Of a stretch of 64,000 nucleotides of DNA, positions 31,707-61,924 are shown one piece after another. The notes beneath the pieces are model-generated. The model saw only the letters and a list, made by a program, of their open reading frames with translations. It was not told the DNA's origin and did not search any database. Numbering within the stretch: position 1 is the first letter of the stretch; each line of letters starts with the position of its first letter. A program made the position numbers and the translations under genes. This DNA is from a virus, in the IMG/VR virus record IMGVR_UViG_3300009499_000148, positions 32,001 to 96,000 of that record; one strand, given 5' to 3'.

Positions 31707-32142
31707 GCTCTTGTTTCTTTTTCTGAAACTTTCCTGACTGTTTCTTTTCAGCCTTCTGCTCTTGTGGCTGTTGAACATCAACACTTTCTGTCGTATCAAC
31801 GCTCAACCCAAGCACTTTTGACTGCTCTTGCTCAATCTTAGCATCAGCTGGTGTAGCAACATGTTTTGGTTGTTCAACCTCATGCTTCACATCATTCTGC
31901 TCCACGCTGCTTACGACGACCTCTGTCTCTACGACTTGTTCGACAACAACATGTGTGTGCTTAACAGATGTAATGATGTCAGGAGTTGCTTCAGGCTTGG
32001 GTGCCTGAGCAACAACCTGAACGTTGGCGTCAATGACATGAACATCGTTTTGGATGAATTCACCCTTGTGCGTTGTCGAATAAGACTTGGTGTGGTCCAA
32101 CCCCTTCACTTCAATGTCATGTCGAATGTGTCTTCGTGCCAT
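31675..32142 (-). CDS. hypothetical low-complexity protein
   Basis: E/Q/V/K-rich ORF. Confidence 0.5.
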   Translation of the reverse strand: MARRHIRHDIEVKGLDHTKSYSTTHKGEFIQNDVHVIDANVQVVAQAPKPEATPDIITSVKHTHVVVEQVVETEVVVSSVEQNDVKHEVEQPKHVATPADAKIEQEQSKVLGLSVDTTESVDVQQPQEQKAEKKQSGKFQKKKQEPKTDVPQAGS

Positions 32143-32158
32143 ATGAACTAACTATACA

Positions 32159-32840
32159 TCACCAGAGCACTTCAAGCTCTCCTTTCATGACACGAGCTAA
32201 AGTTGCTTTCTTTCCTGTGATATGGTCATTCACAACATCATCTCGTTCTCTGTAAGTCCGACGCTTATCGCCGCGGGCTCCACAACCCACCATTTGTTTT
32301 CTATCAGAACTTAACTGTTGTGAAAATGATGTATCATGAATTTCTTTAAGACGTCTTTCAAGCTCATTCCATGCATTTGCTCTATTTTGTGCTTGTGAAC
32401 GCTCGTTTTCAGATCTAACTTGTATTCCAGTCGGACGGTGTGTTAATCTACATGCAGTTGATGTTTTATTTCTGTTTTGGCCGCCCTTACCGCTTCCTCT
32501 CATAAAAGCTTCATCAACATCACTTGGATTAAGTTTAAATGTGCTTTTCGCACCGTCTTTAATAACAGCAACCGTGACAGTTGATGTTTGCACTCTATCT
32601 CTCTTTTCAGTCGGCGGAATTCTTTGCCATCTATGGCCGCCTGTTTCATTCTGAAATGATGCATATGCACCATCGCCCTTCACTTTAAGAATGATTTGCC
32701 CATCATGCTCAAGTCTTTCAATGACGCTAAAGACGCCTCCGAGAACAAAACTTTTCATACATCGCTGCCATATCCTGCGCTAATAATTTTGCATCTTGGC
32801 CGCCTTCTGCCGCCCTAATTTCAACCGCTATGATATCCAT
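32159..32840 (-). CDS. prfA: RF1-type peptide chain release factor lacking domain 1, expressed via +1 programmed frameshift (226 aa)
   Basis: ORF0 32840..32730 MDIIAVEIRAAEGGQDAKLLAQDMAAMYEKFCSRRRL joins the +1 frame SVIERL...ETGGHRWQRIPPTEKRDRVQTS (PxT)...GSGKGGQNRNKT; SD GGGAG before ATG 32840. Confidence 0.88.
32726..32740 (-). promoter_or_regulatory. prfB-like +1 frameshift cassette with amber stop
   Basis: GGAGG-CGT-CTT-TAG-C: internal SD, 3-nt spacer, CUU-U slippery site, stop, then C. Confidence 0.85.
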
Positions 32841-32970
32841 GTTATCTCCCTGTGTCAATGGAACATGTCCCATTGACTCGTCGTATCACTCTAATGCATT
32901 GATTATCTGTAGATGATAATCACATAGTCATAAAAATCGATGACTTGGAGTGTGTCAGGTGAAACAGAAG

Positions 32971-33066
32971 CTAAAATACGGGTGGGTCTTCATCTGAAGA
33001 TGAGAGCGCAATATTCTTTGCATTAACTTGCTTATCTTGTTCAAGTTCATCATACGCTTTCATCAT
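32971..33066 (-). CDS. putative leader peptide (31 aa) ending in UAG
   Basis: MMKAYDELEQDKQVNAKNIALSSSDEDPPVF-TAG, followed by a structured spacer that can pair with the release-factor SD. Confidence 0.5.
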   Translation of the reverse strand: MMKAYDELEQDKQVNAKNIALSSSDEDPPVF

Positions 33067-33115
33067 TAATACAATTTAAGTATAAAGTACGGTAAATAAC
33101 ACTACTGAAAAAAAA

Positions 33116-33407
33116 TGGAGCTGCCGGCGTTTGCAAGCCGGGTCCAAAAGACTTAGAAGCGATGTTCATTCACAGGTTTGGTGGGCTAAGCCCACGTTCC
33201 GTTGAAACAGATATGTGTCATAGCATTAACCCAAGCTAGACGGGTCTTTGCTTCGTTTATCGGGTGTGCAAAGAGACCCGATGAATCACGCCGCGAGGCG
33301 TAGTTCAGATTCGAAATCGTTGCCGATTATCAATGTTGTCTTCTTAAGGGAAAAGACGGCCCACCTGCACATCGTATCATCATCCTCTGTCGAAACTTAT
33401 CAGCCCC
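33116..33407 (-). ncRNA. ssrA: tmRNA
   Basis: 5' GGGGCTG...TTCGAC; 3' GAC-CCGGC/GCCGG T arm and CAGCTCCA with G3-U70; tag frame GNDFESELRLAA-TGA at 33324..33286. Confidence 0.92.
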
Positions 33408-33413
33408 AAAGAA

Positions 33414-41135: not shown

Positions 41136-41207
41136 CGCGCCCAATGGGATTTGAACCCATGACGTAGCAATTTAGAATTGCGTGTTCTACCGCTGAACTA
41201 TAGGCGC
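41136..41207 (-). tRNA. amber suppressor tRNA, anticodon CUA
   Basis: GCGCCTA/TGGGCGC acceptor, GTTC/GAAC D stem, GCAA-TTCTAAA-TTGC anticodon arm, ATGGG-TTCAAAT-CCCAT T arm. Confidence 0.85.
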
Positions 41208-41551
41208 TAAGCAAACGAATTTCCACAACCACACGTCGTGGATGCATATGGATTAATGAACTTGAATCCAGTTCCTGATAGACCCATGATGTAATCAATC
41301 ATCACTCCCTCTAGATGCATCGCAGATACTGGGTCGATATACACGGTGATTCCATCATGCGTTGATACAATGTCATCATCGTTTTTGTTTGAAAAATCAA
41401 GAACATACTCAAACCCAGCACAACCGCCTCCTCTGATTCCCACACGTAATCCATCACCGACTACGTTCGGTTCTAGCATGAATTCTTTTATTGCAATGAT
41501 AGCCTTCTGCGTGATTGTGATTATCTCATTGCTGTTTTCGCTTTCTTGCAC
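41207..41551 (-). CDS. iscA: HesB/IscA iron-sulfur cluster carrier
   Basis: ITITQKA, GGGCAGFEY, IDY, FINP, TCGCGNSF; probable GTG start at 41551. Confidence 0.88.
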   Translation of the reverse strand: MQESENSNEIITITQKAIIAIKEFMLEPNVVGDGLRVGIRGGGCAGFEYVLDFSNKNDDDIVSTHDGITVYIDPVSAMHLEGVMIDYIMGLSGTGFKFINPYASTTCGCGNSFA

Positions 41552-41855
41552 GTGCCTCTTCCTTATACAATCGATTGAGTTGTTCTTGTCTGTCAAGCTG
41601 TATCGCAGTGAGACGGCGCTTGCTGATATCGTGTCTCTTTTCGGCTGCAACGACAACGTTAGACATACGCTTAAGCATTGCGTCTATTGCTCGTATAACG
41701 TTTATTAGGACAAGCAGAGCACTCTTCTCAAAGCCCCTTGACTGTGCAACATCCTTATACATCGCCTTGAGTGTGCCATCAGCATCAAGCGACGACTGCA
41801 TGCCATCTAACAGCTTACGAAGTGCGTTAGCACGTTCTTGAAATGATGCACTCAC
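41526..41855 (-). CDS. hypothetical protein
   Basis: ORF in operon context. Confidence 0.5.
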   Translation of the reverse strand: MSASFQERANALRKLLDGMQSSLDADGTLKAMYKDVAQSRGFEKSALLVLINVIRAIDAMLKRMSNVVVAAEKRHDISKRRLTAIQLDRQEQLNRLYKEEARARKRKQQ

Positions 41856-61145: not shown

Positions 61146-61153
61146 ATGCGACA

Positions 61154-61226
61154 TGCTTCAGATGGGACTCGAACCCATACGACCCGGCTTCTCGAACCGG
61201 TGACTTTACCATTTGTCCACCGAAGC
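61154..61226 (-). tRNA. tRNA-Leu(GAG), short variable region, C33
   Basis: CCGGT-TCGAGAA-GCCGG. Confidence 0.65.
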
Positions 61227-61229
61227 AAA

Positions 61230-61854: not shown

Positions 61855-61924
61855 AGCCGTGGGTATGAATTGAACATACGACCTATCGATTAATATCGAT
61901 TGCTCTACACTGAGCTACCACGGC
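61855..61924 (-). tRNA. tRNA-like gene with 6-nt anticodon loop (TATTAA)
   Basis: Intact acceptor, D and T arms; ATCGA-TATTAA-TCGAT. Confidence 0.6.

Follow-up and report, generated by a model that had tools for sequence, protein, structure and literature searches.

The window analysed here is a 64-kb stretch (positions 32,001 to 96,000) of the 106-kb IMG/VR virus record IMGVR_UViG_3300009499_000148, a huge-phage fragment which is estimated to be 29% complete. On its minus strand lies a release factor gene that is divided between two reading frames and has the following layout.

32845..32850, minus strand: ribosome-binding site GGGAGA, 4 nt 5' of the ORF0 start codon (direct reading)
32730..32840, minus strand: ORF0, 37 sense codons from ATG 32840, start of release factor domain 2; the Pfam PCRF and RF1 models run continuously from it into ORF1
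32736..32740, minus strand: internal Shine-Dalgarno-like GGAGG, formed by the Arg codons CGG AGG, 3 nt 5' of the shift codon (direct reading)
32735-32733, minus strand: spacer CGT between GGAGG and CTT (direct reading)
32726..32732, minus strand: shift site CTT TAG C, with P-site Leu CUU (CTT 32732-32730), A-site UAG (TAG 32729-32727) and then C (32726) (direct reading)
32159..32728, minus strand: ORF1, in the +1 frame from AGC (Ser38) onward to the stop TGA 32161-32159; remainder of domain 2/4 and domain 3
32609..32617, minus strand: PPT tripeptide, a PxT-type RF1 recognition motif, within HRWQRIPPTEKRDRVQTS; aligns to E. coli RF1
32477..32485, minus strand: GGQ peptidyl-tRNA hydrolysis motif, within GKGGQ; aligns to E. 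coli RF1

The 37 codons of ORF0 translate as MDIIAVEIRAAEGGQDAKLLAQDMAAMYEKFCSRRRL, a product which opens EIRAAEGGQDAKLL and closes MYEKFCSRRRL. At the junction the minus strand reads CGG AGG CGT CTT TAG C, and frame 0 continues past the TAG with CGT CAT and then TGA. The elements of a prfB-type cassette are all present, namely a slippery P-site CUU followed by U, which makes re-pairing on UUU possible, a stop codon followed by C (TAG C at 32729-32726), and GGAGG at the prfB spacing of 3 nt 5' of the shift codon. A single instance of GGAGG-N3-CTTTRRC is present in the window, where shuffled sequences lead one to expect 0.02, and its position is exactly that of the frame junction. The first-pass annotation had described ORF0 ending in this cassette with PPT and GGQ in the +1 frame, and had remarked that the ORF caller missed the true N-terminus. 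Both descriptions agree with our direct reading of the minus strand; the ORF list holds just a 199-aa +1-frame ORF that begins at an internal ATG.

A sigma-70-like promoter match (TTGACA-17-TATCAT, 11/12, at 32830-32858 on the minus strand) overlaps the start of ORF0. A transcript from it would start inside ORF0, and such matches occur in the region in the number expected by chance. The 540 nt upstream of the gene (32874-33413) contain coding-strand ORFs of no more than 39 aa and no Rfam match.

With CTT-T read as one step, the joined product (P0001) has 226 amino acids and matches Pfam PCRF and RF-1. Its alignment to the RF1 equivalog model NF001859 runs without a break over positions 106-333 (of 347) and scores 208 bits, versus 135 bits with prfB (RF2) and 72 bits with prfH. 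Among solved structures the RF1 chains are its best matches (E = 4e-41), followed by RF2 (6e-23) and PrfH (8e-10). P0001 corresponds to residues 113-340 of E. coli RF1, with PPT at residues 75-77 and GGQ at residues 119-121, and its decoding and switch-loop residues align with those of RF1. It thus shares with the canonical bacterial protein (prfA) the PxT-type loop, GGQ, the switch-loop region and domains 2-4, but it lacks domain 1 (approximately 105 residues), has Gln in place of the stacking His193, and with its incomplete four-domain architecture stays under the RF1 equivalog cut-off (208 vs 400 bits). No domain 1 was located upstream of ORF0, where 32874-33413 is without a long ORF; the relatives begin at the same point, their start being as far from the EIRAAEGG segment as that of ORF0. 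Judged by its domain content and motifs, the product is an RF1-type class-I release factor consisting of domains 2-4 without domain 1. The earlier description of the locus as a prfB-style +1 cassette in an RF1-type gene is therefore upheld by PPT, GGQ and the RF1 score. From the PPT loop and that score, specificity for UAG and UAA is predicted.

PrfH (RF-H), which is paired with RtcB, is likewise a short class-I release factor homologue without domain 1. P0001 is nevertheless a weak match to it, falling below the TIGR03072 family cut-off (71.6 vs 166.65 bits), and no RtcB partner was seen next to the phage gene. PrfH is also without a PxT loop, and reads damaged ribosomes and not stop codons.

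Relatives were collected at several levels. A search of IMG/VR yielded 40 loci at 38-56% identity and the phage collection contributed four further huge-phage loci; at the DNA level, a search of the same phage collection found no close relative. A protein search returned 1,411 relatives at E <= 1e-10, most of which, as called, are about 195 aa long and open with a +1-frame leader that has GGVFD, GGVFE or GGVFS as its last residues, the result of translating the cassette in the wrong frame. Seventeen loci on MAG contigs, a good many of them labelled Myxococcota and not one derived from an isolate, included seven CTT-TGA and six CTT-TAG cassettes. The cassette is conserved in 22 IMG/VR and phage loci, 13 MAG loci and about 70 database proteins, and the pooled set comprises 103 non-redundant members of the frameshift type; for the database proteins the stop type was deduced from the residue that follows Phe in the +1-frame leader.

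All 22 non-redundant IMG/VR and phage loci encode the N-terminal segment in one frame and continue the protein in the +1 frame, and ORF0 ends ..RRGL-stop at the same codon. Their consensus is C-GGAGG-nGT-CTT-TGA-C. The shift codon is CTT in 22/22, and the Shine-Dalgarno positions are conserved to a similar degree (G at -8 in 21/22, G at -7 in 20/22, A at -6 in 18/22 and G at -5 in 17/22), while the stop is followed by C in 17, by G in four, by A in one and by T in none. The Arg-Arg pair is nearly always encoded by CGG AGG, which points to constraint at synonymous sites. Two uninterrupted relatives, L011 and P0010 (..FCKRKDL-SITKK..), align without gaps to the predicted junction ..FCSRRRL-SVIER.., and both halves of the gene are conserved at the protein level. 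Since 103 non-redundant, diverged relatives, found in huge phages and on MAG contigs, all have the cassette at this same codon, neither decay nor a sequencing error explains it, as the first-pass annotation had already held with regard to decay. On these comparative grounds the +1 frameshift is programmed; slippage itself and its efficiency we infer from sequence.

We consider it quite probable that the locus encodes a 226-aa RF1-type factor without domain 1 which is made by programmed +1 frameshifting, and that the cassette together with the competing ways of decoding its UAG makes the gene a stop-codon gate. Translation would initiate at ATG 32840 and proceed through 37 codons, whereupon the ribosome would pause with peptidyl-tRNA-Leu on CUU, its A site being occupied by UAG-C, which would be decoded slowly and is a poor context for termination. 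By analogy with E. coli prfB, GGAGG would pair with the anti-Shine-Dalgarno sequence of 16S rRNA and the tRNA would re-pair on UUU, after which translation would resume in the +1 frame (..SRRRL-SVIER..) to give the full factor. A 37-aa dead end would result from termination at the UAG, whether by host RF1 or, provided that it has UAG activity, by the phage factor. Output would thus rise when UAG is decoded slowly and fall when RF1 activity or a suppressor tRNA is abundant.

The latter is of relevance because the window, which carries 24 tRNA genes, includes an amber suppressor. Two of these genes may bear upon the cassette.

41136..41207, minus strand: tRNA(CUA), amber suppressor (ARAGORN; Rfam tRNA 63.9 bits); putative competitor at the cassette UAG
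61153..61227, minus strand: tRNA-Leu(GAG) (ARAGORN), possible decoder of the slippery CUU; a role in the shift is suggested by the E. coli prfB mechanism

If tRNA(CUA) were to read the UAG in frame, translation would stop two codons later at the TGA and leave a 40-aa dead end, so the suppressor should lower synthesis of the factor. The link between this tRNA and the cassette is a putative one. The suppressor gene is not part of the main tRNA array, which occupies 55-63 kb; the gene immediately upstream of it (41207-41656) encodes an IscA-like Fe-S assembly protein. ARAGORN also reported a tRNA at 61855-61924 (minus strand) with an undetermined two-base anticodon ('tt'; Rfam tRNA 56.8 bits).

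Genome-wide recoding of TAG or TGA was considered and rejected: under the standard code ORFs cover 80% of the 106 kb, and pairs of ORFs linked in frame through a TAG are not over-represented on the coding strand. TAG terminates nine of the 113 long minus-strand ORFs in the 106 kb. Neither of the two TAG-joined ORF pairs in the window has a Pfam domain spanning the TAG (two further pairs lie outside the window). A TAG-gated Pth2-like gene was entertained as the target of tRNA(CUA) and discarded, there being no PTH2 match in the 106-kb, 29% complete fragment. The release factor gene is the only recognisable gene found in the 106 kb in which an internal TAG has to be bypassed, and there the suppressor would oppose the +1 shift. 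Its neighbours encode a PhoH-PIN protein, an Hc1-like protein, nucleases and a helicase.

Which stop codon the cassette carries, and whether this matches the specificity of the factor, was assessed across the 103 members. TGA is found in 86 (83%), TAG in 14 and TAA in three. The recognition loop has PPT in all three stop classes, followed by Q or H alike in the TGA and TAG classes. No co-variation was detected among the 103 members between the cassette stop and the decoding residues, and the only alignment column that separates the classes is the codon overlapping the stop itself. A tree of the 103 members, built by a quick method and weakly supported at many nodes, requires 16 state changes to account for the 17 non-TGA rows, and the five rows nearest to the window's gene all have TGA. 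A smaller, more careful tree places site-A TAG (site A being the cassette described above) in three separate places. The nearest relative, P0002, is 95% identical and has the leader GGVFD, from which TGA is inferred. The amber forms mostly retain the Shine-Dalgarno sequence and the +4 C. The amber cassette, as these comparisons present it, is a real, recurrent and recent tip variant of a mostly-UGA cassette which has founded no lasting TAG clade. The earlier wording that the cassette was 'rewired' to amber is apt in this sense. The alignment of homologues for SD-NNN-CTT-TAG-C that had been suggested gave a divided answer: the Shine-Dalgarno sequence, the CTT and the position are conserved, but the TAG is not.

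These data bear directly on the possibility that the cassette provides dedicated autogenous feedback, TAG having been selected because the product reads UAG and would hold down its own production, in the way that the UGA of prfB serves RF2. The first-pass annotation had drawn this conclusion from the agreement between the stop and the predicted specificity. In the window's gene that agreement exists as far as specificity can be told from the motif: UAG stands in the A site of a complete prfB-type cassette, and reading of UAG and UAA is predicted for the product from its PPT loop and from its score, which is higher for RF1. In addition, retention of the Shine-Dalgarno sequence and the +4 C in most TAG relatives suggests that the cassette stays under selection after the stop has been swapped. 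In the family, however, TGA accompanies the same loop in 86 of the 103 cassettes, so a stop that matches the specificity of the factor is not the rule, and the lack of co-variation, the 16 changes for 17 TAG or TAA rows with no TAG lineage persisting, and the TGA inferred for the 95% identical relative all argue against selection of TAG for feedback. Host RF1 and the phage tRNA(CUA) would moreover act at the same codon, and thus the product need not be the main input. We therefore regard dedicated feedback as doubtful, and the argument by which it had been deduced does not carry over to the family. Feedback by the product in the window's own gene is plausible, self-limitation being what would follow if the product is active on UAG. 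As a tip variant, the TAG form could be neutral or short-lived, or the change from UGA could have been adaptive.

The stop codons of the gene are not confined to the cassette. In 43 of 44 aligned homologues a stop falls within residues 33-53, and none falls elsewhere in the gene; the majority of the 44 have the site-A frameshift, and many have one or two in-frame TGA codons. Several loci deviate in detail. A second +1 site, CTT TAG C, without a recognisable Shine-Dalgarno sequence, lies 16 codons (about 48 nt) 3' of site A in L010, L012 and L031, the last of which has an additional in-frame TGA at residue 38. L026, L033 and L034 combine an in-frame TGA (residue 43) with an in-frame TAG (residue 51), and L003 and L038 have TGA at both of these places. 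L002:486-1143 (LR745208.1, a 485-kb phage) carries a CTT TGA C cassette and a loop shortened to QRTSNGRIHSS, without PxT.

One further locus, L018 (L018:1381-2060, IMG/VR 3300037067_027616, record G003), has an in-frame TAG (TAT TAG ATG) at the codon immediately following site A, which aligns with Ser38 of P0001, in place of the frameshift of other relatives. The 467-kb record that holds it encodes a tRNA(CUA), and the 40 kb sampled nearby follows the standard code. By its reading frame, the L018 design is that of a readthrough-gated RF1-type gene, which a 2016 review listed as unknown (Atkins et al. 2016, PMC5009743). In stretches of 30-49 kb taken from LR745206, G005, G003 and G002, the standard code reads about as well as one with TGA or TAG as sense, and the in-frame stops therefore look gene-specific in the sampled regions. 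The window's phage record and five related phage records have one release factor gene each, and no second one of the RF2 type was found in them. In four of the five related records the gene lies in or beside a tRNA array. A check of other TAG-cassette phages for a suppressor tRNA found none in the tRNA regions sampled from G001, G002, G004 and G005; only G003, whose release factor gene carries the in-frame TAG, has a tRNA(CUA).

A second explanation would accept the frameshift as real and regard it as a fixed attenuator that keeps the yield low and roughly constant, it being of little consequence which stop is present. The presence of all three stops at the site and the frequent swaps among them are what it would lead one to expect, and residue 38 is variable in the uninterrupted relatives, which indicates that the protein places no constraint on the stop. 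There is nevertheless a strong preference for TGA over TAG (86 to 14), two codons of equal GC content, and the restriction of stops, whether frameshift or in-frame, to codons 33-53 in nearly all relatives suggests a sensor of stop decoding and not a simple brake. We judge a fixed attenuator to be rather unlikely.

A third explanation is that the short factor is not RF1-specific and is perhaps an omnipotent or rescue-type hydrolase, for which the TGA, TAG and TAA cassettes would all be self-sensing. This would account for one loop accompanying all three stops, and would be in keeping with the missing domain 1, with a stacking His that is often Gln, and with the single release factor gene in each phage genome examined. 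Against it, the decoding and switch-loop residues align with RF1, and in-frame TGA codons occur within this very gene in relatives that share the PPT loop, an arrangement which a UGA-reading product would defeat. It is accordingly an improbable reading.

That ORF0 and ORF1 are a split gene giving two polypeptides, with the internal Shine-Dalgarno sequence initiating ORF1, is very improbable. GGAGG does lie close upstream of ORF1 and there is a +1-frame ATG at 32758, but this ATG is upstream, not downstream, of GGAGG, and the sequence just downstream of GGAGG has no ATG, GTG or TTG in the ORF1 frame, so re-initiation does not account for ORF1. The +1-frame leaders of the relatives vary in length or are absent, and a split here would interrupt an element of domain 2 which is continuous in RF1. 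A broken gene or assembly error, that is, a 1-nt indel in a formerly intact release factor gene, is hardly credible, for while the window comes from one metagenome contig, the frame structure and cassette recur in more than 100 independent assemblies, both halves are conserved as protein, and a cassette exactly at the junction would be a very improbable product of chance.

To our knowledge, programmed frameshifting in release factor genes is textbook material for bacterial RF2 only, with UGA or rarely UAA as the stop. The bacterial prfB cassette has the same geometry as the one described here (Shine-Dalgarno sequence, 3-nt spacer, CUU, stop, C), it too lies in a class-I release factor gene (PMC3711429, PMC12421855), and the slip of peptidyl-tRNA-Leu from CUU to UUU which is presumed here is the same as in prfB. 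The phage gene differs in being of the RF1 type, in having UAG as its stop, and in the location of the site, which is at codon 37 in domain 2 as against codon 26 in domain 1 for prfB; furthermore, the stop in the phage family is mostly not the one which the product is predicted to read. Given that the two positions are non-homologous and that the gene is RF1-type, the same RNA device most likely arose independently in the huge phages. In a survey of more than 12,000 bacterial genomes, TAG was found in none of 8,164 prfB motifs and prfA showed no conserved frameshifting (Prince et al. 2025, PMC12421855). An RF1/UAG counterpart was described as unknown in a 2016 review (Atkins et al. 2016, PMC5009743). 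The window's gene is also set apart from canonical RF1 by being phage-borne and by its frameshift cassette, prfA not being known to use frameshifting (PMC12421855, PMC5009743).

RF1 and RF2 genes have been reported from stop-codon-recoded phages by Borges et al. (preprint 10.1101/2021.08.26.457843) and Al-Shayeb et al. 2020 (PMC7162821), with no recoding inside them. As here, those genes occur in large phages beside suppressor and many other tRNAs. They are, however, described as uninterrupted, standard-code 'code-change' genes, with no mention of a frameshift or internal stop, and in contrast to the recoded phages the 106 kb of the window's phage reads as standard code. Phage release factors are not treated by Burroughs and Aravind 2019 (PMC6514570). 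The nearest viral parallel in expression strategy is an eRF1-like gene of a giant amoeba virus, cited by Atkins et al. 2016 (PMC5009743), which is also a virus-borne termination factor whose own expression needs recoding at stop codons, in that case readthrough plus a frameshift. That gene is of the eukaryotic eRF1 type, from amoeba viruses, and both its protein and its signals are unrelated to those of the phage gene. A full-text literature search found no published description of a frameshift-gated phage RF1-type factor, a result which is not proof of novelty.

Taken together, we put forward tentatively, at somewhat less than an even chance, that huge phages have independently built a stop gate into a short RF1-type factor. 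In this family, which has over 1,000 members, more than 90% would have a premature stop (codons 33-53) that is bypassed by a prfB-like +1 shift at UGA, UAG or UAA, or by in-frame readthrough. Synthesis of the factor would in this way be coupled to the decoding of one stop by the cell, through host RF2 in most members and through RF1 plus the phage's own amber suppressor tRNA here. If true, this would be the first recoding circuit of the RF1 type, and the first release factor whose synthesis is set by the activity of the other. The family also shows that an RF1 without domain 1 is widespread in phages and that gene callers systematically truncate its genes. The occurrence of all three stops on one cassette provides natural variants with which to find out what the cassette responds to. 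Where an amber cassette and an amber suppressor tRNA share a genome, as they do here, termination, suppression and frameshifting should compete at a single codon, and this could be tested with reporters.
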